A stretch of 64,000 nucleotides of DNA from a virus: positions 1 to 64,000 of IMG/VR virus record IMGVR_UViG_3300031867_000045; one strand, written 5' to 3'. The notes under the pieces were generated by a model that saw only the letters and a list, made by a program, of their open reading frames with translations, was not told the DNA's origin and did no database searches. Numbering within the stretch: position 1 is the first letter of the stretch; each line of letters begins with the position of its first letter. Below, in pieces: positions 1-49,407 of this stretch. A program made the position numbers and the translations under genes.

Positions 1-667
1 GTTCTTTTTCAGATTGGTTAAGAATGACATAATTATTTCTCCTTTTCTTATGTTTTTTTCAAGACGCTTCAAATTTTAGCAAATTTTCAAAGTAAATAAA
101 AACTATATTTGATTGCCATTTTCGGCAATCTATTTTTCTTTAGTAGAAGAATAGCAACTCTCGCAAGAATCACATTCCCATATTTGATTTAATCTAATAT
201 GTAATATCATTTTATTGTTTTGTTATTATTGCTGTATACCAGTAACATTTAACCGGCGCGTCTTATCACGACACTTCAATTATCGGGACAAGTGCAGGAT
301 TTTAACCTGCGTTTTCTCCTTTAAAGGGAGACGATCTAAACGCTGATCTAACTCGTCAATAATATTGCTGTCGATGTCGTATCATTCTATATGCTAAACG
401 CAAAATGCGTTAAAGCCAAAACTTCAAGACTCCATAAGGTATTAAAAGAGGCACTGTGCTACCGTTACACTACCATGCCGGAATCGAACCGAACCTGCGC
501 CTTGGAATATTTTATAACCAAAAATTGCTGTCGGAGTCTTATCAAATATTAAATTATCAAGACACATTGTTTGCGACCCTATCGGGTTTGGCGGACTTGA
601 ACCGCCTAAATATAACAGCCAAAAGTAATATTATTATCCATGCGTAAATTTGCTGTATGTGTCTTAT

Positions 668-1213
668 TTATTTACTGTAAATAAATTTTTCAAAATACTT
701 CGGTGGAACATATTTAGTCAAATATACTCCATTTTCTGATTTGAAAAATTTAATACCGTTTTTGTACATTAGCCTTGAATTAATGACAATTACCACGGGA
801 TTTCCGTGCCGCCTTCCTACATTAAATGCCGTCTTTTCATCGGAAGATAAATGAACATATAAACGGCTTTGCGGTTTGATACCTTGCTTTGAAATTGAAT
901 CATAAAATTTAGTGCAGGTTCCATGATACAATATAGAGGGCGGTTCAACCTCTTTCAATTCAACATCTACATTGATCGAATGACCTTGATTTGCCCTAAT
1001 CTTTGTTTTATCAGAATTAAATGAATATCTTTGTTTACTGTCCGACTTGACAATTTCTTCAAGTATAGACATATCTATACGATATTTCCTATTAATTCCC
1101 GCTATCAGTTGTTTTACGTCAGCCCAGCCGTGAGAGTCGAGTGTGATCCCTGCTTCTTCTGGCTTATGCCTCAGAATTAAACTGATATATTTACTTAAAT
1201 TAGTGTAAGACAT
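668..1213 (-). CDS. kptA: RNA 2'-phosphotransferase (Tpt1/KptA family)
   Basis: 181 aa, alignable along its whole length to E. coli KptA: FLSxxLRHKPE, GWAD, RANQGHS, LYHGT, RLYVHLS, ARxHGxPVV motifs all present. Confidence 0.8.
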   Translation of the reverse strand: MSYTNLSKYISLILRHKPEEAGITLDSHGWADVKQLIAGINRKYRIDMSILEEIVKSDSKQRYSFNSDKTKIRANQGHSINVDVELKEVEPPSILYHGTCTKFYDSISKQGIKPQSRLYVHLSSDEKTAFNVGRRHGNPVVIVINSRLMYKNGIKFFKSENGVYLTKYVPPKYFEKFIYSK

Positions 1214-2437: not shown

Positions 2438-3211
2438 TTACTCACCAACAAAAATTAAATCATCAATATATTTCCGACCTTCGCCCTTGAAAACGGGAAT
2501 TTCATCATCAATCACCCACGAACTTCTGCCGGTAGTCTGATCGACTTTGCGAATACAACAACTGCCACGCTTATATTTTGTCGGATAACTATTCCAGTCA
2601 ATTCCCTTTTCATTGAGCAACATCTTGATGATCTCGCTCGTATTTTTACCGTGCATTTGCTTATCGGAAAAGTTTGCATGACCGACCATTTGAATCGAAT
2701 TTCTGATCGCGTCCTGCTGCCGCCAATAAATATTATTGGCTACTTCCTCTTTCGGAATGTTAAATACACGAGCATCAAACATAGCGCCCTTTGTTTCTGC
2801 TATTCCATGTGCGCAATCCCAGCCGATAACCCAACCGCGTGAGAACGCTTTATTAAAAGCTAACGTCGCCATGCTTGCCGCTACGCTTGCACATTTTTGA
2901 ATGTTGTAATCAAACCACGCGGTGGTATTAAGTTCTTTGTAGTCGATCAAAACTAATGTGATCTCGTCCGACTGAGTATAACCAAGAACGCAACCTTGAA
3001 TATTCTCACATAGATATCGCATAGTGTCTTGCATAGCCGCCGAAAGAACAGTATCAAATGGTCTTTGGAATCCGCGAGTGAAAGTATGAAATGCCTTACC
3101 GTCGATTCTGATAATGACCGGCGTTCTCGTAGTTAAATAATTCCGAGAAACATATTCATATTTTTTCATTCTCTTATCGAAGTCGCTGTATTTGCTCATA
3201 ACGTATTTCAA
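2438..3211 (-). CDS. Thg1-like tRNA-His guanylyltransferase
   Basis: 257 aa with Thg1 signature blocks: TPVIIRIDGKAFHTFTRGF, GYTQSDEITLVL, plus the downstream acidic/aromatic regions typical of Thg1/TLP. Confidence 0.7.
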   Translation of the reverse strand: MKYVMSKYSDFDKRMKKYEYVSRNYLTTRTPVIIRIDGKAFHTFTRGFQRPFDTVLSAAMQDTMRYLCENIQGCVLGYTQSDEITLVLIDYKELNTTAWFDYNIQKCASVAASMATLAFNKAFSRGWVIGWDCAHGIAETKGAMFDARVFNIPKEEVANNIYWRQQDAIRNSIQMVGHANFSDKQMHGKNTSEIIKMLLNEKGIDWNSYPTKYKRGSCCIRKVDQTTGRSSWVIDDEIPVFKGEGRKYIDDLIFVGE

Positions 3212-6524: not shown

Positions 6525-8174
6525 TTAGGTGTTATCTGTATTTTCCGGCAAGGTGTCCTTTTTCTGAACGCCATCGGCAGGTACTACCTGAGTAGTAGAT
6601 AGCAGACCCTTTACAGGTTCGGCGATGCTACCCACCAATCCACGAAGTTCATCATTGATCGGCTTGCCGTTAAGGGCTTCATTCTGAACATTCAGAGTTT
6701 TCATCAGCGCAGGAATACTGGATAAGGTATCGACAAGAACGTTGCCGGAACCACTGCCCTGAGAACTTCCGCCGAAGTTGATAAACTCAGCCTTGCTACC
6801 AACTGAACCCATAAGTTCCGCGGCTTTGGTTGCAATCTGCACTTTACCCTCTGTTTCGATCTTCAACTTCTCGATCTCGAAGTTTACTTTCTCGTTAGAC
6901 GCTCTCGCTTCTGCAAGTGCGCGTTCACCTTCGGCTTGTGCCATAAGTTTCTGCTTTTCTACCTCAGCTTCCGCAAGACCTTTCTGCTTGATGACTTCCG
7001 CATCGGCAAGACCTTGCTGTTTTGCAACCTCAGCTTGTGCAAGACCTTTCTGCTTGGTAACGTCAGCTTCGGCATTACCTTTCTGCTTGATGACTTCCGC
7101 AGAAGCATTACCCTCTGTCTTAACCTTTTCCGCTTCTGCTTGTGCTGCGATCTTGATGGCATCCGCGTGGTTTCGTGATACCTGCACCTCTGCCTCTGCA
7201 CTGATAGTCTTTACATTCGCTTCCGCTTCGGCTTCGATGCGCTTCTTCTTCTTTTCTGATTCTGCTCTTGTGGAGATAACTTCCTGCTCCTTGATTGCTG
7301 CGAGATTTGCCTGTTCCTGCTTGACAACCTCAACACGACCCTTTTGCTGTTCTACCTCCTGCGCTCGAATGGTTCTCTGCAACTGACCGGCAACTTCGGC
7401 ATCGGCGTCTGCCTTATCAGTTTCAACCTTGAACGCAGCCATTTTCAGTTTATTATCTCTTTCTTTCTCAGCGATAGCCAACTCGGATTCCAATTCGGTC
7501 TGAGAAGCTGTACGCTCAGATTCAGCGTTTTGAGTACGGATAGCCTGATCTACCTTTGCTTTCTTGCTTTCGGCTTCACGGCGCTTATCCTGCATATCAA
7601 GTTCGGCAATGTTATCATAATAACCATTGTTGTCGTTGATGTCTTGGATGTTAAGGCTTACAAGTTCCATACCCATGTTGAGCATTTCATCCTGAATAAT
7701 ATCCTTAACCTTATTAGCAAATACCGCCTTTTCAGATAGTACACTTTCGGGGGTCATTGATGCTACTACATCACGAACACCACCCATAAGTGTCATTCTG
7801 GTGTCGCTGATAATCGCATCCTTTCCTCTTTCCTTAAAGGAAATGATTGCTTTCAGCAACGTTTCCGGATTTGAAGTATCGGGGCGAATCTGCGCCGTCC
7901 AGTCAATAGTAATCGGTACTGATGTTGCCGTCATAATCTCGTCACCATTTGCCGTTACCGTTAGCATTGACAAATCAAAATAATCATACTTGCGAATAAT
8001 CGGCATTACGAACGCACCGCCCGAAACATGAATTTGCGGTTTCTTGCCGCCCGTTACGATCAGTGCCTTGTCTACGCTTGCGACCTTATACATTGATTTT
8101 CCGATCAGGAAGATAGCCACAAGGATAACCAACGCAATTCCGACAGGAATGAGGATTGATAAATATTGTTCCAT
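6525..8174 (-). CDS. SPFH/band-7 (flotillin/YqiK-like) membrane protein with a long Ala/Glu/Lys-rich repeat tract
   Basis: 549 aa with an N-terminal TM helix and a band-7 core. It contains an 11-aa tandem repeat (KQKGLAEAEVx, about 6 copies, also visible as ~33-bp DNA repeats at 6950-7110) and a long coiled-coil. Confidence 0.65.
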   Translation of the reverse strand: MEQYLSILIPVGIALVILVAIFLIGKSMYKVASVDKALIVTGGKKPQIHVSGGAFVMPIIRKYDYFDLSMLTVTANGDEIMTATSVPITIDWTAQIRPDTSNPETLLKAIISFKERGKDAIISDTRMTLMGGVRDVVASMTPESVLSEKAVFANKVKDIIQDEMLNMGMELVSLNIQDINDNNGYYDNIAELDMQDKRREAESKKAKVDQAIRTQNAESERTASQTELESELAIAEKERDNKLKMAAFKVETDKADADAEVAGQLQRTIRAQEVEQQKGRVEVVKQEQANLAAIKEQEVISTRAESEKKKKRIEAEAEANVKTISAEAEVQVSRNHADAIKIAAQAEAEKVKTEGNASAEVIKQKGNAEADVTKQKGLAQAEVAKQQGLADAEVIKQKGLAEAEVEKQKLMAQAEGERALAEARASNEKVNFEIEKLKIETEGKVQIATKAAELMGSVGSKAEFINFGGSSQGSGSGNVLVDTLSSIPALMKTLNVQNEALNGKPINDELRGLVGSIAEPVKGLLSTTQVVPADGVQKKDTLPENTDNT

Positions 8175-8190
8175 TAAATTCTCCTTTTAT

Positions 8191-8312
8191 GCTTTTCGAG
8201 ATATTTACTGAATATCCCGATATTTTAACCGCATTTCCAGCGGCTCTTGACTACATTTAATATTGTAGCAAATCACCATTCAGTTGTCAAGTGTTTTCGA
8301 GTAATTTCTTAA
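8191..8312 (-). promoter_or_regulatory. promoter cassette: conserved motif, TTGACA-17 bp-TACAAT, hairpin, second motif copy, RBS (drives the SPFH gene)
   Basis: On the minus strand: AAGAAATTACTCGAAAACAC-TTGACA-17-TACAAT, then ccgctggaaatgcgg hairpin, then AAATATCTCGAAAAGCA followed by AAGGAG and ATG. Confidence 0.7.
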
Positions 8313-8320
8313 ATATTTTT

Positions 8321-9061
8321 TTAGAATGTATACCCGTCCATTAATCTCATTTTGAATTTATTTTTCTGATGGAGTGCATCAATCTTGTTCTTTACTGCCC
8401 CATCTTCGCAAATGCCTGTCCGAATATACCGATCAAGCGTTTCGTATGTAAAACCCAGGTTTTCCTCGTCAGTCTTTCCGCACAAACCATCTGATGGCTC
8501 TTTATCCATCAAATAGTCCGATAATCCGAGAGCATACCCAATGTCAATGACTTCACTTTTTGTAAACGGGGCAAGCGGCGACAAATCACCAACAGAATCT
8601 CCGTATCTCGTTGAATATCCGATATAGTCCTCAGATAAATTGCAAGTATTGACAACTCTACCGTTACTGCTCTGTGAAACAGCGTATAATGCAGCCATGC
8701 GGATTCTCGCAGGGAGATTGGTAGTTGTCTGACCGGAAATATTAAGAGTAGGCTCTTTTTCCATTCCGTCTAAAATTCCATCTACGGAATTGCCGATATT
8801 GATGGTAAAACTCTTAATTCTAAGAGTATTCACAAGCGTTTCAGCATATTTAATATCGTCCTGCTCGTGGTCTGGAAGTAAAACGCCGATGACGCGGTTT
8901 TCTCCCAAAGCCTTTACGCACAACGCGGCAACCACAGAGCTATCAATTCCGCCGGAAATTCCGACAATGGCTTTTCCAAAATTGCTATTCTTTCTGAACC
9001 AATCCTTAATCCATTCAGCACACTTTTCAGCATGATAATTTCCAAATCCAAATCTATTCAT
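8321..9061 (-). CDS. nadE: NH3-dependent NAD+ synthetase
   Basis: 246 aa; SGGIDS PP-loop motif and overall NadE-like sequence (GISGGIDSSVVAAL...). Confidence 0.75.
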   Translation of the reverse strand: MNRFGFGNYHAEKCAEWIKDWFRKNSNFGKAIVGISGGIDSSVVAALCVKALGENRVIGVLLPDHEQDDIKYAETLVNTLRIKSFTINIGNSVDGILDGMEKEPTLNISGQTTTNLPARIRMAALYAVSQSSNGRVVNTCNLSEDYIGYSTRYGDSVGDLSPLAPFTKSEVIDIGYALGLSDYLMDKEPSDGLCGKTDEENLGFTYETLDRYIRTGICEDGAVKNKIDALHQKNKFKMRLMDGYTF

Positions 9062-10530
9062 TAGAAATCACCGCCGTGCAAAGTTTTTCTGATTTCTTTC
9101 AGACTGGTTTCTTTCAGCATTTCACCATCACGGAAAATAGGCTTTAACATATTGCAAGGATCATTACTTGCTTCTTCCCAAGTCTTTTGATCTGTATAAG
9201 CAATCCCGCCATAATAATCCTCATAAACAAGACAACAACCCTTTTGAGAAGTCTTGAATCCGCCCTCTTTCGGGTCTTTGAAAATGGGAGTAGGCTTTCC
9301 GTCAATCTCACAATATGTCGCCTTAATACAAGAACTGAAAGTATCACGAGTAAACGGTTTTAGAATCCCATCTTCTTCAATGCACTGGAATGAGAACGAA
9401 CCGACACCGAGAGATACATTACAAGCCGCAAATCCGTTTTCTTTGAGAATTTCATAAATCTTCTCGCAACGCTGAACGGTAATTGAATCACCGTACAGAG
9501 CTTTCACACGAGGATCGAGGACTTTATATCCCTTGCTATTAATATAACCGCCGAACTGATCCCATAACTTGAATACCGTCTTTGTTACGACTTCCACGCA
9601 ATCGCCGGAATCTCCGCGCATAAGCATACAACCATTATGGTTCATAATTTCCTTTTTGAGTTTCGGAAGTACGTTATCAATTACATTCCAGTAATCATAA
9701 GAATCCAAAACGCAAGAAAATGATGTATTCGGGTAAATCTCCGTCAACAGTCTGCGGAGCAAAGTAATTTCATCACCGTCAACCGCAAAATTAGAACACA
9801 TTACAGAATGTTCGGTACTCGGAGCGCCAAATCCAACAGGTTCATTTTTGCAATCACAATTATAATTCTTTTCCAAATACGGAATTGCGGGAACCGTTGC
9901 AGTATTCAAGAATGAAAGCAACCAACCCGCAGCCGCCTTCGTTGCAGACTGTAAACATTCCTCACCGCGAAAATCAAAATCTCCCAACGCTCTTGCTCTC
10001 GGCATATCGTCGTCACAGGTTTCAGCATAATACTTGTTCACGATTTCACGATAAGTTGCGCCGACGGTGGCAGCCAACATGGGGTGCCACATTTCAGCCG
10101 AGATCAGCGATTCAAGCGACTGAGGAAGCCATGCAAAATCGGGATGGGTATTTGTGATTCCGAACATCGGAACGTGCATAGGCACTTTCGTTCCTTCGGG
10201 CAACGCCACAATTTCAATGGGTAAATATCCGAGATTATGCAGTTTCTTGATTTTGTTGATATTATATGTATCTTTTCCAAGAGTGGCGTCCATGATTCTT
10301 TGATATTCAACCAAAATCAGGTCGAGGGGCTTTTCAAAAAATTCTCTGTTGAAGTAATCAATCAGATATTCCTTAATAAATCCCTGCAATCCAAAGAATA
10401 CAACTTCATTCCAGCGCTTTACTCTGCTCATTCTCGGAGTAAAATAAGATACCGATTTTGTGATCTTTTCCGGCAACATTTCAGCGTGTACCGCCTTATA
10501 GTAGTCGATCAATAACATCGGATTCGTCAT
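9061..10530 (-). CDS. nadV: nicotinamide phosphoribosyltransferase (NadV/NAMPT)
   Basis: 489 aa; NAMPT-like blocks (DSYDYWNVI, LMRGDSGD, GVGSFSFQ...TRDTF) and the right length. Confidence 0.75.
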   Translation of the reverse strand: MTNPMLLIDYYKAVHAEMLPEKITKSVSYFTPRMSRVKRWNEVVFFGLQGFIKEYLIDYFNREFFEKPLDLILVEYQRIMDATLGKDTYNINKIKKLHNLGYLPIEIVALPEGTKVPMHVPMFGITNTHPDFAWLPQSLESLISAEMWHPMLAATVGATYREIVNKYYAETCDDDMPRARALGDFDFRGEECLQSATKAAAGWLLSFLNTATVPAIPYLEKNYNCDCKNEPVGFGAPSTEHSVMCSNFAVDGDEITLLRRLLTEIYPNTSFSCVLDSYDYWNVIDNVLPKLKKEIMNHNGCMLMRGDSGDCVEVVTKTVFKLWDQFGGYINSKGYKVLDPRVKALYGDSITVQRCEKIYEILKENGFAACNVSLGVGSFSFQCIEEDGILKPFTRDTFSSCIKATYCEIDGKPTPIFKDPKEGGFKTSQKGCCLVYEDYYGGIAYTDQKTWEEASNDPCNMLKPIFRDGEMLKETSLKEIRKTLHGGDF

Positions 10531-11393
10531 AGATTAAACACCTCGATTTTAGATGGCATTAAGTCAATATCTTTCGCATACTTCTGCGTACTCTTGACAA
10601 AAATGCTATCTGTAGTATATAGTTTCTCGATTAAATCTCCGTGTAACAATTCACCACGAAAAACGGTAAATTCACAATGAGTTACAAATAGATATATCTT
10701 ATCCGCGCCGAGTTCTTTTAACTTCTTCGCAGAATGTAAGAATGTTCCGCCTTTACTGCAAATATCATCAATGATTAAAACTATTTTGTTTTTAATCAAA
10801 TTTGTATCTCCGCAAACATCAAGCCCAAGAATATTTCCAGTTTCCCAATCTCGCCGTTTGATACCAAAAGCGTATGGTCGATTGATCTTGCCGGAATACC
10901 GTTTCATGGCACCTTCATCGGGAAAGAATATCGTTGGATTTGTTATGTAATTATCCTTGCAAACATTCTTAATTGCCTGTTCGATATAGGGAGTAGGTTC
11001 CAAAACGGTCAAATTATCGAACAACGCTTCACTCACAGAAGAATGAGGGTCTAAGACAACCACATTCAAGAATTTCAGCGCATTGATAAATTCCGCAAAA
11101 TATTTCAAAGTGAAAACATCCGATTTTCCCTTTACCCTATCCATTCTGGCGTTCGGAATATACGGCAAGAATAGCTCAACATCATAACCCAATCTTTGCA
11201 GGTGTTTTGTCAGAAATAAGATTGCTGCCATTTCACCGTCATTCTCGTAATGCCATGAAATAGTCACGGATTCTTGAATAGGCTCGACAGACTTCAACTC
11301 GGGTTTCAAGTGCAAAGTTCCATCGGGAAAATGATCGAGGACAACTTCGTTTCCATCAATTTTAATCATTCTGTTACCTCGTCGATCTGGCAA
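10527..11393 (-). CDS. prs: ribose-phosphate pyrophosphokinase (PRPP synthetase)
   Basis: 288 aa; PRPP-binding loop IVLIIDDICSKGGTF and PRPP synthetase N-domain. Confidence 0.7.
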   Translation of the reverse strand: MPDRRGNRMIKIDGNEVVLDHFPDGTLHLKPELKSVEPIQESVTISWHYENDGEMAAILFLTKHLQRLGYDVELFLPYIPNARMDRVKGKSDVFTLKYFAEFINALKFLNVVVLDPHSSVSEALFDNLTVLEPTPYIEQAIKNVCKDNYITNPTIFFPDEGAMKRYSGKINRPYAFGIKRRDWETGNILGLDVCGDTNLIKNKIVLIIDDICSKGGTFLHSAKKLKELGADKIYLFVTHCEFTVFRGELLHGDLIEKLYTTDSIFVKSTQKYAKDIDLMPSKIEVFNL

Positions 11394-11929
11394 GAGTGCA
11401 TGACCATCTTAGCAGCGTTATGTAATTCGGGAGTCACACCCGCACAACAAGAGAAGTCACAAGCGATTTGGATTTCCGGCGCGGCTGTCTTGATAACCAG
11501 TGCGTTAGTCACTACACAAATATCGGTACACAATCCAACAAGTTCAACGTAATCGAATCCGCCCTGAACAACAGCCTGAGCCAATGCGAAAGAGCCGAAA
11601 GACTCCTTCAAGAAAACTCTTTTATCATCGTTGTAAGTGAATTTTTCGTTCTTCTCGGCAAGACGATCTCTGAAAGCCTTTTCAATGGTTGGATTCAACT
11701 GCCAACCCTCGGTATGTAAGATACAGTGTTTCACGGGCAAGTGTTTGCCCTCATTAGAATCGAGGTATGAGTCCTCAAAATGTGTGTCATATGTAGCCGC
11801 GATCTCACCGTCGAATGTTTTGATTTTTTCTGCAACCTTATCAACGATTGCCATAGCTTCGGGAGTTCCGAGAGAGCCGTCAATAAAATCGTTTTGACAG
11901 TCAACCACGACAAGTAAACGTTTTTCCAT
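11366..11929 (-). CDS. pncA: isochorismatase-family nicotinamidase (PncA-like)
   Basis: 187 aa; VVVDCQNDF N-terminal motif and catalytic-cysteine block GLCTDICV typical of PncA. Confidence 0.65.
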   Translation of the reverse strand: MEKRLLVVVDCQNDFIDGSLGTPEAMAIVDKVAEKIKTFDGEIAATYDTHFEDSYLDSNEGKHLPVKHCILHTEGWQLNPTIEKAFRDRLAEKNEKFTYNDDKRVFLKESFGSFALAQAVVQGGFDYVELVGLCTDICVVTNALVIKTAAPEIQIACDFSCCAGVTPELHNAAKMVMHSCQIDEVTE

Positions 11930-12099
11930 TTAATTCTCCTTAAAAACTCTAAAATAGCGCCGATCTGTTGATTTTATGCGATAATCTTCTTCATCTTGTG
12001 CCTCCTTGATTTTGACATACTATATATAGTGGTTATAATATTTTATACCACAATATCTTGTGCTAAAAAGTGAATAAAACAGCGATTTGATTCACTTTC

Positions 12100-12513
12100 T
12101 TAAAATCCGTTAAATCCATTCGGATTTCCGTTCATAATGTTGTCGTATTGGTTAATCAAATTCTGTAACTCAGGATCGCTTTTTGCCAACTCACGGTACA
12201 AAGAAAGATTACGATTTTCCTTAACATGCTTATCCATAGCCGTAACGAGCTTGTTAATTGTAGCAGTGTTTTCCTTTCTTCTGTTCCACGCAGAAAAATC
12301 CACCTTACAGATAATATCTTTTGTTGCGGCGACGCCAAAGTAATTGTTGGGTGAAATAATGTTCACCACTTTAGCTACAACAAAATCATTTGCGCTATCT
12401 GTAAGAACATAATCTCCGACACGGATATTTGTATCGTACAGCCGGAAAGCGTATTCCTTAGATGTGTTGAAGCCCCTAACAAAAGTCACCTTTGCGATTA
12501 AATAATGGTTCAT
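12100..12513 (-). CDS. hypothetical protein
   Basis: 137-aa ORF preceded by the conserved UTR motif and an RBS. Confidence 0.45.
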   Translation of the reverse strand: MNHYLIAKVTFVRGFNTSKEYAFRLYDTNIRVGDYVLTDSANDFVVAKVVNIISPNNYFGVAATKDIICKVDFSAWNRRKENTATINKLVTAMDKHVKENRNLSLYRELAKSDPELQNLINQYDNIMNGNPNGFNGF

Positions 12514-12607
12514 ATTCTTTTTCCTTTCTTTTGCTTTTCGAGTTATTTCTTGATTGCCTTGAAATAAAAACCGCAGGATCGCGGTCTTATTTCAAGTTCG
12601 ATTTTGA

Positions 12608-12684
12608 TGGTGTGCCATCAGGGAATCGAACCCTACACCTACAGATTATGAGTCTGTTGCTCTAACCGAATGAGCTAATGGCAC
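12608..12684 (-). tRNA. tRNA-Met or tRNA-Ile2 (anticodon CAT)
   Basis: 77 nt; anticodon stem acaga/tctgt, loop ctCATaa; T-arm taggg-ttcgatt-cccta; CCA encoded; followed by a GATC-loop hairpin and T-run. Confidence 0.7.
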
Positions 12685-12687
12685 ATA

Positions 12688-13689
12688 TTATTCTGTCGGA
12701 AGATATAACCTCAATCGAGTTTTAATGTCTGCCGCTCTTACATCTGATGATACACCAAATTCAGAAGCGATTGATAGTAACTCATTTATATCATCGGAAT
12801 TGCGGAAGGACATAACTAATTTTTTAGTATGTTCCAAACCACATTTTTCGATAAAGAAATCATACATTCCGAGCCAATATATATTACGAAATGTGATCTT
12901 TAAATCATACCAATTTCGTATATATTCTGACAATAACTTGTTTAACGCGATTGCAACCTCTTTTTCCGGTCGTTCATCAAATGTATCTTCATGGCTGGGA
13001 CTTACAACAAAGTGCATATAACTACCATTCCAACTTCTCATTAACGAATTACGGAAAGAATTGAAAGTCGTTGTTTGATGATTGGCTTGAAGCAAAGTGA
13101 TTGTTCTCACATCAAGTTTAACAACTCTGCCCGGCAATACCACTTGCCTTGTTCGGAAATTAATATCCTTTTCTTTTAGATTGATAACTTCCGACAATTC
13201 ATAAAATCCACAATGGAATAAACCGCACAACAATTCAATTAAATCGGCACGATCATTCTTACCTTGCTTTCTCATATCGGTGAAAATATCCAGTAAATCT
13301 TGCCATTCCAAAGGCTTCGCAGCAGTTTCTAATATTTTCATCAATCCCTTGTTCCCTTTTAGATCGGGTGATCTCAACCAAATTGGAATAGGCTCAATAT
13401 TATATGAGTACCACTCGCAAACAACCGTCAACATGAGTTTCACTTGTTTATAAGTGAAGAACAAAATCGGCGACTGTTCTTTGGGATCAAGCGACTGTGT
13501 AAGAAGCACACGCACGAGCTGTATGGTTTCCTCTTTATTCATATCGACAAGTTCTTTACCGATCTTTTCCTCATACTTAAACAATAAATCATTGTCGATT
13601 GTATTTCTAACGGTATTCCTGCGGGTTTGATTATAACTTTCGTCAGCATAGAATCTGTCTAAGAGTTCTCTTGTGGATAATTTTCCCAT
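12688..13689 (-). CDS. hypothetical protein
   Basis: 333 aa; no confident motif. The central region (LIELLCGLFHCGFYELSEVINLKEKDINFRTRQVVLPGR) weakly resembles tyrosine-recombinase box I but lacks the catalytic Arg. Confidence 0.4.
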   Translation of the reverse strand: MGKLSTRELLDRFYADESYNQTRRNTVRNTIDNDLLFKYEEKIGKELVDMNKEETIQLVRVLLTQSLDPKEQSPILFFTYKQVKLMLTVVCEWYSYNIEPIPIWLRSPDLKGNKGLMKILETAAKPLEWQDLLDIFTDMRKQGKNDRADLIELLCGLFHCGFYELSEVINLKEKDINFRTRQVVLPGRVVKLDVRTITLLQANHQTTTFNSFRNSLMRSWNGSYMHFVVSPSHEDTFDERPEKEVAIALNKLLSEYIRNWYDLKITFRNIYWLGMYDFFIEKCGLEHTKKLVMSFRNSDDINELLSIASEFGVSSDVRAADIKTRLRLYLPTE

Positions 13690-13756
13690 AACAACACCTC
13701 ATTTAATACGATTATAGCAATATAATTCACCATTGTCAAGAAATAAATCGAAAAAA

Positions 13757-14125
13757 TCAGTGAACCAAGATAGGAAATTGTATGCAGATAGCGTCTGTAA
13801 TATGTGTCAGAATCGCATTGTCCGCAATTTCTCCGATACACTTATCTAATCTTTCGATGTTTACGGTCTGAATCTGCTCGATCAACAATGTACTCGGCGC
13901 TTTCAGCCCGTATTCATTGTAATCCCACAATTCAACGTGTACCGGCAACTTCTTCTTGCTCATTCTCGATGTAATGGGAATGACATTGAGCGTAGTGCTA
14001 TATGTATTATTTTTGTTGTTGGAGAGGATAAAGACAGGTCTATATCCGCCCTGTACGCTACCCTCCGAAGTAAGGTAGCATAGCCAGATTTCGCCGCAGC
14101 GAGGTCTTGTGTTTGAGCGCAGCAT
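13757..14125 (-). CDS. MazF/PemK/Kid-family endoribonuclease toxin, with no antitoxin ORF
   Basis: 122 aa; GEIWLCYLTSEGSVQGGYRPVFILSNN...TTLNVIPITSRM...PVHVEL...LKAPSTLLIEQIQTVNIERL matches the PemK/MazF fold signature. Confidence 0.6.
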   Translation of the reverse strand: MLRSNTRPRCGEIWLCYLTSEGSVQGGYRPVFILSNNKNNTYSTTLNVIPITSRMSKKKLPVHVELWDYNEYGLKAPSTLLIEQIQTVNIERLDKCIGEIADNAILTHITDAICIQFPILVH

Positions 14126-15053: not shown

Positions 15054-16025
15054 TTATTTCGCAACTCCTTCGATTAAGCTCATAAACTCATTCATGGCTT
15101 CAATATGAATCGCAGGATCAGAATTTCCGGCGTTCTCTGCCCCACTCTGATAAACCATAGCAATAATATCACGCAGGTCTGCAACATCGAGCGTCATAAC
15201 GGGATTTGTAGATTCCGCAGTGAAATTTTCGCCGCCCTGAACGTGCCTATTATAGAAATCTCCAAAATCCTTGAAATACTGATCGACCTTGCTTTTTGTC
15301 AAGCCGATATATCTCTTGGTGGTTTTCGTATCGCTATGATTGTAAATGGTCTGCAAGAGTTCCATGCTGTCATAGTCATTCGGGTGCAGCATACGACTGA
15401 TCTTTCCGAAAGTCTTTCGTGTGCTGTGCGTTCCAATATTGTATTCAATCCCGCAATTTTCCGCTGCACGTTTCAGCGCTTTTCTCCAACCATCGGGAGA
15501 AAGAACGTTGCCTTTTCCAGTTCCCGAAAGCTGCATGAATACAAATCCGTGATAGTTTTCCGCAGATGGATCACAGCCCGTCTTTTCGAGATACAGATTA
15601 ATGGCGTCCTTGCAAGCCTGATTGATATAAGGATTCGCCAGTTTGTCGGTCTTGTCCTCTACGATTTCCATTAATTCCGTGCGAAATTTTCCGTTTTTCG
15701 GATTAAAGAAATGTTCCCATGTCAAGCTCAGAGTATCACCGACACGACGAGCCATATTCAAAGAAATCACAAACAGCATATAATGAAGCCATGATTTGTT
15801 TTCAATAAAGTAATTCATCATTTTCCGCAAATCCGCGACTTCAAATGCGAATACTTCCGACTTCTTGCCCTTCTGCTTGTTTTGCTTGATCTTCTTGGGC
15901 TTGCCGTCCTTACGAAGTTTCGGGGCATTTTCCGGCTGAGGATCAACAGGCATTTCGGTAAAGAAAGTCTGTCCGGGAAAAAGTGGTGATGTTACCATAA
16001 CGGTATTAGTCTGAATATTTTTCAT
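15054..16025 (-). CDS. int: tyrosine-type site-specific recombinase (phage integrase)
   Basis: 323 aa; box I ARRVGDTLSLTWEHF, box II/III HSTRKTF...LLQTIYNHSDTKTTKRYI (R-H-R-Y catalytic residues); basic N-terminal arm. Confidence 0.75.
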   Translation of the reverse strand: MKNIQTNTVMVTSPLFPGQTFFTEMPVDPQPENAPKLRKDGKPKKIKQNKQKGKKSEVFAFEVADLRKMMNYFIENKSWLHYMLFVISLNMARRVGDTLSLTWEHFFNPKNGKFRTELMEIVEDKTDKLANPYINQACKDAINLYLEKTGCDPSAENYHGFVFMQLSGTGKGNVLSPDGWRKALKRAAENCGIEYNIGTHSTRKTFGKISRMLHPNDYDSMELLQTIYNHSDTKTTKRYIGLTKSKVDQYFKDFGDFYNRHVQGGENFTAESTNPVMTLDVADLRDIIAMVYQSGAENAGNSDPAIHIEAMNEFMSLIEGVAK

Positions 16026-46111: not shown

Positions 46112-47554
46112 ATGGCTAAAAAGAAATTAAAATCTGATGGAATCTTTTTCACGGGAAAAGCCTCGGAAGATGTTACTGGATCACAATACTTGGTAAAATT
46201 TGGAGAAACACAATGCCTATTAGAATGCGGCTTGCACCAATCATCAAGTAATGATTATTTAGATTCGTACAAAATCAACTCAGAGAAATTTCAATTTAAG
46301 CCAAAAGAAATTGATTATGTTTTTGTGGCACATGCTCATATCGACCATTGCGGTTTAATTCCAAGATTGGTTAAAGAAGGATTTGCCGGAAAAATTATTG
46401 CAACAAAAAATACAGCGGAAATTATGAAGCCCTTGCTTTTCAATTCTTGCGCAATAGTGCAGGAAGAAGCAAGGGTTTTGTCATATCGTTATAAAAGAGA
46501 ATATAAACCATTGTATGAACAGGCAGATGTTGAGAAAGCATTGAACATGATCGAGGTATTCAATGAGTATGATTATATTTACAAACTAAACGATAACATC
46601 AGTTTTAAATGGCTGCATAATTCTCATTGTGTCGGAGCGGCACAGCTATTATTAATATTGAAAAATGGATCAAAAACCAAAAAATTGTTATACACATCAG
46701 ATATGGGTTCATTAAAAACAAAAAATCATTATGTTACAAACACCGAAATTCCAACCGATTTTGCGGATTGCGTTATCATGGAAAGTACATATGGTGATTC
46801 TAAGAGAATTTCAAAAAAGAAACGTTCTTACGATATAGAGCATTTAAGAGTTGCTATTAATACGGTTTTGGAACGCAAAGGAACTATAATTCTTCCATGT
46901 TTTAGTTTTAGCCGAACCCAAGAATTATTGACGAATTTATACGATATTTTTTCTGGTGAAAATGATTTTAACACACCAATATATGTAGATTCAAAACTGA
47001 GTTGTGATATTAGTAAACTTTATTCATCAATTCTATCTGGTAGTGATTTAAAATTATGGGATCAAGTATCTAATTGGGATAATGTTCACTTCATTGAAGA
47101 AAAAGATGAATCGAAGTCCATCATAGCAAATACAGCCCCGAAGATAGTATTATCATCTTCTGGATTCTGCACCAATGGCAGGATCATTGGATATTTGAAA
47201 AAATATATTAAAGATAATAATTCGATGGTGGTTTTCTCTGGCTACGTTGGTGATAATCCATCATATTTATCATATCGAATCAAAAATTACCGTGAGAATA
47301 AAGGAATTAAAATCAATAAGGAATACGTGCCAAATCGTGCCGATTGTATTACATTATCTACATTTAGTAGTCATGCTGATTATAATGATTTGATTAAATA
47401 TGGCAGTTCATTAAATACAAACAAATTGATTTTAGTTCACGGATCATCGGAAGCAAAGCATTGTTTGGCGGAAGGCTTACGTCCGGCAATTTCAAAAAAT
47501 GACAAAACATATCGTGTCATAGAGTCCTATAAGGGTATGATGATACGATTATAG
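46112..47554 (+). CDS. metallo-beta-lactamase-fold beta-CASP family nuclease (RNase J/CPSF/Artemis-like)
   Basis: 480 aa; MBL motifs (HAHIDHCG = HxHxDH motif 2, downstream His/Asp ligands) followed by a beta-CASP-like C-terminal region. Confidence 0.55.
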   Translation: MAKKKLKSDGIFFTGKASEDVTGSQYLVKFGETQCLLECGLHQSSSNDYLDSYKINSEKFQFKPKEIDYVFVAHAHIDHCGLIPRLVKEGFAGKIIATKNTAEIMKPLLFNSCAIVQEEARVLSYRYKREYKPLYEQADVEKALNMIEVFNEYDYIYKLNDNISFKWLHNSHCVGAAQLLLILKNGSKTKKLLYTSDMGSLKTKNHYVTNTEIPTDFADCVIMESTYGDSKRISKKKRSYDIEHLRVAINTVLERKGTIILPCFSFSRTQELLTNLYDIFSGENDFNTPIYVDSKLSCDISKLYSSILSGSDLKLWDQVSNWDNVHFIEEKDESKSIIANTAPKIVLSSSGFCTNGRIIGYLKKYIKDNNSMVVFSGYVGDNPSYLSYRIKNYRENKGIKINKEYVPNRADCITLSTFSSHADYNDLIKYGSSLNTNKLILVHGSSEAKHCLAEGLRPAISKNDKTYRVIESYKGMMIRL

Positions 47555-48204: not shown

Positions 48205-49407
48205 ATGAGTTTTAAAAGATTAGAAAATGAGAACGAAGAACAATTCTTGTGGCGGCTGGGACAAGCCAAAGATAAAGGGCTGGTTGATTTAAGTTGGGAT
48301 GATATAGCTTCAATTATGAACAAAGAGTTTAGAGAAGATATTTCCGAATATCGGAGCGAAGCTGCTTATCGAAAACCTTATCAGCAAGCTAAACGATTTT
48401 ATGAAAATGGAACATTTCAAGATTTGACACAAGAGTTGTATATAAAAGAACTTAGAGATGCAAAACATGAAGTTCGTATTGAAAAACAAAAATTATTCGA
48501 CGAGCGCACCGCTCTAAATAAGATTCTTAGAGAATCCGCAAGAGCGGAGGAAGATTTAGCTCGTTTAGAAGTGTTGATAAGAGAAAATGGTGAAACCGTT
48601 TTCCAGAATACTTGTCCGGAAATCAAAACAGCCGACAATGATTTGGTTGTTTGTTTATCTGATTTTCATTTAGGTATGAATACAAATAATTATTTTGGAA
48701 TCTACAATTCTGAAATTGCGGAAAAACGACTTCAAGATTATTTACAGCAAATAATTGACATAGCAGAATTACATAAATCAGAAAATGTATACTTAATTCT
48801 GCTCGGTGATCTCCTAAGTGGTCAGATACATTTTACAACACAACTTGAAAACCGCGAAAATGTGACGCAACAAGTTCAAAAAAGTGCTGAATTGATTTCT
48901 GCATTTGTTTATGAATTAAGCCGACATTTTTCTGCTGTATATGTAAATGGAGTCGCAGGTAATCATTCACGCACTTCATTTAAAGATCAAGTTCTAAGAG
49001 ACAATAGATTAGACAATCTGATACCTTGGTATATGAAAGCAAAACTATCTCATGTTGATAACATCAAATTTATTGACGATCAAAATATAGATGCTACAAT
49101 CGGGTGCTGCGAAATTCGGGGGCAAAAATATTTGATGGTTCATGGTGATTTCGATAGTTTTAGTGAATCAGGTGTTTCAAAACTCGTGTTAATGCTCGGA
49201 TATAAACCATCTGCTATTTTTTATGGTCATTTGCACCGCTGTTCATACGACAGTATAGCTGGCGTCAAAATCATAAGGAGCGGTAGTTTTTGCGGAACTT
49301 CCGATGATTACACAATTTCAAAGAGATTAAGTGGATCAGCTTCACAAATGGTTTGTGTTGTAACAGATAAAGGAGTACGGACTTGTTATCCGATTGATTT
49401 AAATTAA
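48205..49407 (+). CDS. calcineurin-like metallophosphoesterase (Mre11/SbcD-like) with N-terminal coiled-coil extension
   Basis: 400 aa; phosphoesterase motifs DFHLG (I), LLGDL (II), GNHS (III), VHGDFD, GHLH in canonical order in the C-terminal 250 aa. Confidence 0.6.
   Translation: MSFKRLENENEEQFLWRLGQAKDKGLVDLSWDDIASIMNKEFREDISEYRSEAAYRKPYQQAKRFYENGTFQDLTQELYIKELRDAKHEVRIEKQKLFDERTALNKILRESARAEEDLARLEVLIRENGETVFQNTCPEIKTADNDLVVCLSDFHLGMNTNNYFGIYNSEIAEKRLQDYLQQIIDIAELHKSENVYLILLGDLLSGQIHFTTQLENRENVTQQVQKSAELISAFVYELSRHFSAVYVNGVAGNHSRTSFKDQVLRDNRLDNLIPWYMKAKLSHVDNIKFIDDQNIDATIGCCEIRGQKYLMVHGDFDSFSESGVSKLVLMLGYKPSAIFYGHLHRCSYDSIAGVKIIRSGSFCGTSDDYTISKRLSGSASQMVCVVTDKGVRTCYPIDLN

Follow-up and report, generated by a model that had tools for sequence, protein, structure and literature searches.

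Three phage pathways that restore nicotinamide adenine dinucleotide (NAD+) are the closest described relatives of the system analyzed here. NAD+ reconstitution pathway 1 (NARP1) consists of two enzymes, Adps, which pyrophosphorylates ADP-ribose (ADPR) to ADP-ribose pyrophosphate (ADPR-PP) and whose K162 is essential in phage SPbetaL1, and Namat, which forms NAD+ directly from ADPR-PP and nicotinamide (Osterman et al., bioRxiv 10.1101/2024.02.11.579819). The pathway is known from phages Bas63, SPbetaL1 and FADO (Osterman et al. 2024), Namat structures have been solved (9w5x/9w5w; Lan et al. 2026), and canonical NARP1 overcomes Thoeris, DSR1/2, SIR2-HerA and SEFIR (bioRxiv 10.1101/2024.02.11.579819). 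NARP2, of the Vibrio phage KVP40 type, pairs a phage NadV/Nampt with a nicotinamide mononucleotide (NMN) adenylyltransferase, while NARP3 combines a PnuC-like transporter with a NadR-like enzyme, and counters Sir2-type immunity by restoring NAD+ from imported nicotinamide riboside (Yan et al. 2026, PMC13464706). In the present study, we examined a 64,000-nucleotide stretch of the genome of a large gut phage (positions 1 to 64,000 of IMG/VR record IMGVR_UViG_3300031867_000045; hereafter the window), which represents 64 kb out of roughly 160 kb, and in particular a cluster of four minus-strand genes at 8321-11929 encoding a PncA-like nicotinamidase, an Adps-like protein, a Namat-like transferase and an NAD+ synthetase, NadE. 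Judged from sequence, the balance tips slightly toward the cluster being a four-gene derivative of NARP1 that would rebuild NAD+ from ADPR and nicotinamide through deamidated intermediates.

An earlier note on this DNA had labeled the four genes PncA, Prs, NadV and NadE, and had read them as a NadV-based pathway with missing steps. The four co-oriented open reading frames (ORFs) were all found on the minus strand at the coordinates it gave, its motifs (VVVDCQNDF, GLCTDICV, IVLIIDDICSKGG and SGGIDS) are all present in the translations, and its four family assignments were borne out by Pfam and NCBIfam profiles with E-values far past chance. The labels of the two middle genes are misleading when their sequences are compared more closely with those of NARP1. 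The Adps-like protein, a predicted ADP-ribose pyrophosphokinase of 280 aa (10527..11369, minus strand), belongs to the ribose-phosphate diphosphokinase family, with 100 bits against TIGR01251, under the cut-off of 113. It is 42% identical to the biochemically characterized SPbetaL1 Adps (E 8e-52) and 34% identical to FADO Adps, and the best true phosphoribosyl pyrophosphate (PRPP) synthetase in the PDB reaches only 67 bits. The essential Lys (SPbetaL1 K162) and 15 other Adps positions are invariant across the four-gene class represented by the window and the canonical two-gene class, and no Adps position discriminates one class from the other. By these comparisons, the protein labeled Prs belongs to the Adps clade.

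The same holds for the label NadV. The Namat-like transferase, a NAMPT-family protein of 489 aa (9061..10530, minus strand), scores 442 bits against NF006629, over the cut-off of 405. Its best solved relative is 9w5x/9w5w (398 bits), compared with ~170 bits for human NAMPT, and 9w5x is recognizable, by its motifs and residue numbering, as the SPbetaL1 Namat described by Lan et al. 2026 (PMC12774641). Neighbor-joining (NJ) trees were built with our own implementation, one of 70 local representatives (200 bootstraps) and one of 143 broad representatives (100 bootstraps), and in the tree of 70 the window class groups with Namat, apart from phage Nampt. The enzyme keeps the catalytic His, R306, D308, F189, R192, D13 and Y15, as well as the Namat-type clamp residues R40, F392 and T398-R399-D400. 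Thus the locus resembles NARP1 in its adjacent, overlapping, phage-borne adps and namat-like genes, in the 42-45% identity of their products to the SPbetaL1 enzymes, and in the conservation of the Adps catalytic Lys, the Namat catalytic His/Arg/Asp and the clamp R40/F392/T-R-D. With NARP2 it shares a phage NAMPT-family enzyme and the same presumed NAD+-restoring purpose, but the enzyme here is only 30% identical to phage Nampt (compared with that of Vibrio phage D479, L198), its Phe392 and R40 correspond to Gly and Met/Lys in Nampt, its loop is Namat-like and not GGGLLQ, it is paired with Adps, and the window contains no NMN adenylyltransferase (NMNAT) or Nudix gene. NARP3 was also considered as a match and rejected; it likewise restores NAD+ in phage infection, but PnuC and NadR are unrelated to the cluster proteins, the precursor is another one, and neither component is present in the window.

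The main departure from canonical NARP1 lies in the pyridine pocket of the transferase. The nicotinamide pocket of Namat is formed by F189, R192, D215, A242, R306, D13' and Y15' (Lan et al. 2026, PMC12774641); Asp215 of the SPbetaL1 enzyme hydrogen-bonds the nicotinamide amide, and the D215A substitution lowers activity ~8-fold (PMC12774641). The corresponding residue of human NAMPT, Asp219, is fundamental to substrate specificity (PMC7096376), and according to a review table that cites Khan et al. 2006, substrate affinity is switched by D219S and activity is lost with D219A (PMC4919578). In the window protein, five of the seven pocket residues are kept, and the other two are replaced, namely Asp215 by Ala (NTATVPAI versus GTDTIPAI) and Ala242 by Ser (PSTEH versus PATEH). 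Both positions are switched throughout the class of enzymes to which the window protein belongs (the Ala/Ser215 class). Of 491 positions scanned without bias, 15 separate this class from the canonical one, 215 and 242 among them; two of the seven pocket residues among 15 discriminating positions corresponds to a hypergeometric P of 0.017, and six further discriminating positions lie at most 8 residues from pocket residues 215, 242 or 306.

In order to compare pocket state with gene content, 231 loci were collected from IMG/VR contigs (queried with the window protein, SPbetaL1 Namat and the cluster representative P0154), GTDB genomes, deposited phage records and contigs carrying cluster representatives, and were classified with hidden Markov models (HMMs) of the four families. 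The first set comprised 201 loci and the window. Among its enzymes, 158 had Ala/Ser215 with Ser242, and 156 of these had PncA and/or NadE nearby (135 with both), the exceptions being locus L161 and a cut fragment, L069; neither gene was found beside any of the 43 enzymes with Asp/Glu215 and Ala242. The further 30 loci gave 13 enzymes of the Ala/Ser215 and Ser242 type, all with NadE and 11 with PncA (both loci lacking PncA are cut contigs), and 16 of the Asp/Glu215 and Ala242 type, again with neither PncA nor NadE. An all-against-library search returned the 150 closest representatives of 50%-identity clusters, of which 92 have D215/A242 and 51, about a third, have (A or S)215/S242. Ten non-Asp representatives have an intact, un-inserted clamp, and nine of them were looked up; an NAD synthetase was encoded in all nine and an isochorismatase-family protein in eight, with the genes arranged differently among them, while two D215 control representatives had only Adps and neither PncA nor NadE. 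When the neighbors of 81 dereplicated loci were clustered, the four families were the only conserved ones (79, 72, 70 and 68 loci), and no recurrent NadD, NMNAT or PncB appeared in these neighborhoods. In 12 loci, a 648-aa glutamine-dependent NAD synthetase (CN_hydrolase plus NAD_synthase) occupies the position of NadE, a replacement which indicates that the amidation step is under selection. The association with PncA and NadE persists to ~40% identity, through changes of gene order and interspersed genes, and in different kinds of phages. Because of this persistence and the exchange of NadE for the glutamine-dependent subfamily, the association appears functional and not merely inherited. The altered nicotinamide pocket, together with this strict co-occurrence, is the real oddity of the cluster, and it had been overlooked by the earlier note. 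Unlike the self-sufficient two-gene NARP1, the operon here has four genes, with a nicotinamidase and an NAD synthetase as obligate partners, and an Ala and a Ser in place of the amide-binding Asp215 and of Ala242.

The two added enzymes retain the features expected of their families. The PncA-like protein (11366..11929, minus strand, 187 aa), encoded by the first gene of the operon, matches Pfam Isochorismatase (E 6e-16), and its best solved relatives are the nicotinamidases of P. horikoshii (1ilw/1im5) and M. tuberculosis (3pl1). The catalytic triad (D10/K108/C138) and metal site (D48/H50/H68) align to the sites of these two PncA enzymes and are at least 97% conserved in 127 distinct homologues from the related loci. 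Its score against the NCBIfam equivalog is 31 bits, with a cut-off of 174, and the protein is therefore a divergent nicotinamidase member. NadE (8321..9061, minus strand, 246 aa), the product of the last gene, matches Pfam NAD_synthase (E 1.7e-51) and TIGR00552 (178 bits, cut-off 64), contains the SGGIDS P-loop, and is of the short single-domain type, with NH3-dependent NAD synthetases as its best solved relatives.

The overlapping stop and start codons at the gene junctions (ATGA for PncA/Adps, ATGA for Adps/Namat and TAATG for Namat/NadE) indicate that the four genes form one tightly packed operon. The mechanical ORF of the Adps-like gene spans 10527-11393 (288 aa) and reaches a TTG at 11393. 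The most likely start is the ATG at 11369, since the alignment with SPbetaL1 Adps begins there and this start also yields the ATGA overlap with the PncA stop codon.

Immune NADases split NAD+ into ADPR and nicotinamide, and the four enzymes would reverse this in four reactions. The PncA-like protein would hydrolyze nicotinamide to nicotinate and NH3, Adps would convert ADPR and ATP to ADPR-PP and AMP, the Namat-like transferase would join nicotinate and ADPR-PP directly to nicotinate adenine dinucleotide (NaAD) with release of pyrophosphate, and NadE would convert NaAD, ATP and NH3, the last possibly supplied by PncA, to NAD+, AMP and pyrophosphate. By this route, an adenylyltransferase, PncB and PRPP would all be dispensable, and the product of the transferase is predicted to be NaAD, not NAD+ as in NARP1. 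We infer the order of the steps, the use of nicotinate in the third, and the use of ADPR-PP by the insertion-bearing sub-clade described below from these comparisons. Use of ADPR-PP is predicted to be retained, given the conserved clamp (R40, F392 and TRD) and an Adps free of class-specific change. The reaction of nicotinate with ADPR-PP to NaAD would be an undescribed one, and for the proposal that it operates, forming with PncA, Adps and NadE a self-contained 'deamido-NARP1' that recycles NADase debris, we see the case for and the case against as evenly balanced. In the literature searched, which falls short of the whole, there was no NARP1-type module with PncA and NadE and no nicotinate-using Namat. 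The predicted route resembles the Preiss-Handler pathway (PncA-PncB-NadD-NadE) in that nicotinamidase comes first and NAD synthetase last, by way of nicotinate and NaAD; it differs in that PncB and NadD are absent from the window and are predicted to be replaced by Adps and the Namat-like enzyme, with ADPR instead of PRPP and ATP supplying the ADP-ribosyl moiety.

This pathway also accounts for the steps that had seemed to be missing. We scanned 64 window ORFs with Pfam (all those of at least 113 aa included) and 113 ORFs for the HxGH and Nudix-box motifs, and no cytidylyltransferase-like NMNAT, Nudix protein, PncB or NadD was found among them. The observation in the earlier note that the window lacks an adenylyltransferase and a PncB was thus correct, as was its remark that the gene mix differs from the NadV plus Nmnat arrangement. 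Its conclusion that steps are missing did not hold, since the two middle genes belong with Adps and Namat, and NARP1 produces NAD+ from ADP-ribose with no NMN adenylyltransferase. For the same reason, its suggestion that the phage relies on host NadD/NadR or on a hidden enzyme is superseded, NARP1 needing neither an NMN nor a nicotinate mononucleotide (NaMN) adenylyltransferase. The one ORF it had proposed as an unrecognised enzyme, at 12100-12513, was rejected as a candidate; it has a match to a PHROG of unknown function and, besides this, only a sub-threshold HAS-barrel match (E 0.009), and its homologues occur in three of the first 80 related loci, which places it outside the conserved module. 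Overall, the families, the phage context and the link to anti-defense NAD+ reconstitution in that reading stand, and the NARP2-type NadV pathway with gaps does not. We judge the anti-defense link to be right, with the role of this operon inferred by analogy and carried over from experiments on canonical NARP1.

Several observations weigh against the pathway as we propose it. In the window sub-clade, the selectivity-clamp helix carries a 9-aa insertion (GSFSFQC-IEEDGILKP-FTRD versus GSFTYQYNTRD) at the place of the adenine-stacking Tyr396, which could weaken selectivity for ADPR-PP; the GSxΦxΦxΦTRD signature of NARP1 is interrupted in this sub-clade and intact in sister lineages of the Ala/Ser215 class. 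SPbetaL1 Namat itself also accepts PRPP in vitro (bioRxiv 10.1101/2024.02.11.579819). Nicotinate as the substrate is deduced from two residues and from gene content, and an AlphaFold2 model of the Namat-like protein made with 12 close homologues had a mean pLDDT of 42.5, too poor for the pocket to be read. The Ala/Ser215 class forms a single split (200 of 200 bootstraps in the local tree and 56 of 100 in the broad one), and the insertion-bearing group nests within it in the broad NJ tree of 143 representatives. Because of this single split, the co-variation of pocket and gene content may trace to one ancestral event and not to many independent trials. The second-best solved relative of NadE is the F. 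tularensis enzyme (3fiu). F. tularensis NadE prefers NaMN, and for this reason the window enzyme may use either NaAD or NaMN. Finally, the proposed route costs two ATP rather than one, with no evident selective advantage; we speculate that the costlier route may be favored by a nicotinate-dominated host pyridine pool or by the pull of an irreversible last step.

Some of these points would also suit a host-dependent Preiss-Handler route, in which PncA would make nicotinate, the Prs-like protein PRPP, the NadV-like protein NaMN, host NadD NaAD and phage NadE NAD+; this is essentially the reading of the earlier note with nicotinate replacing nicotinamide. The Pfam and NCBIfam labels (Prs and NAPRTase/NAMPT), the acceptance of PRPP by SPbetaL1 Namat and the insertion at the Tyr396 site of the adenine clamp agree with it, and the pocket switch fits nicotinate use equally under this route. 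We nevertheless consider it unlikely, because the Prs-like protein lies in the Adps clade, with no position separating it from canonical Adps, and SPbetaL1 Adps showed no detectable PRPP-synthetase activity in vitro (bioRxiv 10.1101/2024.02.11.579819). Moreover, the Namat-type R40 and F392 are kept, instead of the Nampt-type Gly, nine related lineages with a fully canonical clamp have the same PncA and NadE partners, and NadD and PncB were neither found in the window nor recurrent in the 81 neighborhoods. The possibility that the cluster is an ordinary NARP1 with two helpers, which makes NAD+ from ADPR and nicotinamide while PncA and NadE push the first and last steps of host nicotinate salvage, seems to us equally improbable. 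NARP1 operons do gain accessory genes, such as RyDEP in the NARP1 locus of phage DyoEdafos (bioRxiv 10.64898/2026.05.28.727677), and in relatives, genes for NADAR and NrtR-like proteins likewise accompany the cluster. However, this explanation leaves unaccounted for the replacement of Asp215 and Ala242 in all the enzymes that have the partners and in none of those without them, D215A cuts the activity of Namat on nicotinamide ~8-fold, and Namat would have to share its nicotinamide with a competing nicotinamidase expressed from the same operon.

A further alternative concerns the role of the operon and is compatible with the proposed nicotinate chemistry, namely that the cluster is an auxiliary metabolic or lysogen-benefit cassette, supplying NAD+ for replication, for NAD+-consuming enzymes of the phage such as Tpt1 or for the lysogen, and not an anti-defense system. 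The phage looks temperate, with an integrase and a nearby MazF toxin, relatives lie on 250-330 kb contigs from isolate genomes (e.g., Pseudoruminococcus massiliensis), and one distant member adjoins a bacterial chemoreceptor gene. A bacterial NARP1 of unknown role also exists (PMC12774641), and the NrtR-like gene beside the cluster in many relatives recalls ordinary NAD regulons. On the other hand, Adps acts on ADPR, which NADase immunity produces, canonical NARP1 overcomes the four kinds of defense named above, and the clade is overwhelmingly found on phage-sized contigs, so that we hold a purely metabolic role to be doubtful and, as with the two preceding alternatives, give it little weight beside an anti-defense NARP1 derivative acting through nicotinate and NaAD.

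With respect to distribution, the cluster matched none of 50,697 phage records by megablast, and at the protein level only one of these records exceeded 60% identity, MT835544, an unannotated fecal clone. Just one of the 50,697 records has a cluster of this type. Relatives from metagenomes were recovered by a word-indexed search, in which nearly all of the 8000 scored candidates had E <= 1e-20 and the best 120 clusters each shared 79% identity or more with the window protein; they are mostly on 100-170 kb contigs. Matches in GTDB came mostly from bins of Lachnospiraceae and other Clostridia, along with the isolates Pseudoruminococcus massiliensis and Filifactor villosus, bin taxonomy being an imperfect guide to the host. 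The four-gene type appears to be common in large phages and prophages linked to gut Clostridia, but it is hardly represented among collected phage genomes.

Variants of the enzymes themselves were also seen. The PHROG family phrog_12872 (547 positions) matches the window Adps in its N-terminal half and the Namat-like protein in its C-terminal part, so an Adps-Namat fusion protein appears to exist in some phages. Lengths of 570-1100 aa are found for many Namat-family genes (representatives P0135, P0151, P0167, P0216 and others), whose matches come in two or three segments interrupted near residues 240-320, which suggests that the long genes carry inteins or other inserted elements; several deposited Bacillus phage matches are likewise in two pieces.

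The sole sizeable gap adjoining the cluster is a 170-bp intergenic region 5' of PncA (11930..12099), which is the likely site of the promoter or regulatory elements of the operon. At 8 nt 5' of the PncA ATG there is an AAGGAG ribosome-binding site, and a possible extended -10 element (TGgTATAAA) was read by eye on the minus strand at ~12040-12050. A consensus scan found no full minus-strand -35/-10 promoter in 11930-12099, upstream of PncA. The region also contains a perfect sigma-70 consensus (TTGACA-16-TATAAT) on the plus strand at 12012-12039, directed away from the operon and antisense to ORF 12100-12513, and a 6-codon minus-strand ORF (MKKIIA) with a strong ribosome-binding site. At the other end, the promoter and terminator scan detected no terminator after NadE. 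Directly downstream lies a gene (6525-8174, minus strand) for a 549-aa SPFH/flotillin-like protein with a long coiled-coil tail rich in Ala, Glu and Lys, and a homologue (29-77% identity) follows the cluster in many relatives. This gene has its own strong, near-consensus promoter (TTGACA-17-TACAAT at 8290-8262), which argues that the operon ends after NadE.

The most frequent neighbor after the four conserved families is an NrtR-like gene (Nudix plus NrtR winged helix), present in 28 of the 81 dereplicated loci. It occurs in 44 of the first 201 loci (e.g., L172 at 36-956 and L145 at 10188-11129), 43 of them in the Ala215 class, and also in L202 (128-958). The gene is co-oriented and stands directly before PncA or after NadE, and the canonical Nudix box is kept in 10 of 28 NrtR-like proteins examined. 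NrtR regulators respond to ADP-ribose, and the NrtR-like gene may be an ADP-ribose-responsive regulator of the operon, possibly switching the cluster on. It is absent from the window; ORF 12688-13689 was tried as a divergent NrtR and rejected, having no similarity to the NrtR-like proteins of relatives and no match with an HMM built from them. Some relatives have a NADAR domain, either as an N-terminal extension of NadE or as a separate gene beside the cluster (L136 at 9726-10934, L133 at 7458-8642, L180 at 9487-10782 and L228 at 8675-9499, and further in L068, L122, L125, L103 and L105), and two canonical two-gene NARP1 loci also have NADAR. NADAR domains are linked to ADP-ribose processing, and here the domain could feed ADPR into the pathway. 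A reverse-transcriptase gene with a YAcAr/DprA-like domain, or lone YAcAr ORFs, lie a few kb from the cluster in several relatives (L136 at 12378-13805, L004 at 12147-13193, L222 at 6569-6919 and L224 at 13066-13479).

The phage context of the cluster was borne out by the remainder of the window, which contains a large terminase subunit, a portal protein, a ClpP-like protease, an integrase and 19 tRNA genes. One of these tRNA genes, detected by ARAGORN at 285-357 (minus strand), has the anticodon TTA and would read the UAA stop codon as a suppressor tRNA; long ORFs such as those of the terminase and portal are intact, with no obvious stop-codon recoding in the window. A MazF/PemK-family toxin gene (13757-14125, minus strand; E 5e-21) lies near the tyrosine integrase gene (15054-16025, minus strand), and this pair is kept upstream of the cluster in the close relatives L001, L004, L011, L067 and L136. 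The Tpt1 reported previously, which plausibly consumes NAD+ as the earlier note suggested, was confirmed as an RNA 2'-phosphotransferase (668-1213, minus strand; E 8e-50). It is one of several RNA repair or processing genes in the window, the others being at 2438-3211 (minus strand), 46112-47554 (plus strand) and 48205-49407 (plus strand), a set that includes a Thg1-like tRNA-His guanylyltransferase, a beta-CASP/RMMBL RNase and a calcineurin-like phosphoesterase. Thg1 is also found near NARP1 in Bacillus phage FADO (L083) and in the relatives L076 and L224, and RNA ligases and CCA-adding enzymes lie near the cluster in L222 and L228.

NAD+ depletion is among the commonest bacterial anti-phage strategies, and the proposed route, if true, would add another phage counter-pathway, with new transferase chemistry, to NARP1-3, which have been described since 2024. 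The characterized pathways come from cultured phages, and the apparently wide occurrence of the four-gene variant in uncultured phages associated with gut Clostridia points to a bias in what has been studied. Annotations such as 'Prs + NadV/nicotinate phosphoribosyltransferase' hide modules of the NARP1 type, so that readers then look for steps that are not missing, and the pocket residues together with the PncA and NadE partners offer a simple rule for sorting Namat-family genes in metagenomes. The switch of D215 to A or S with A242S provides a natural experiment on base specificity in the NAMPT/Namat fold.

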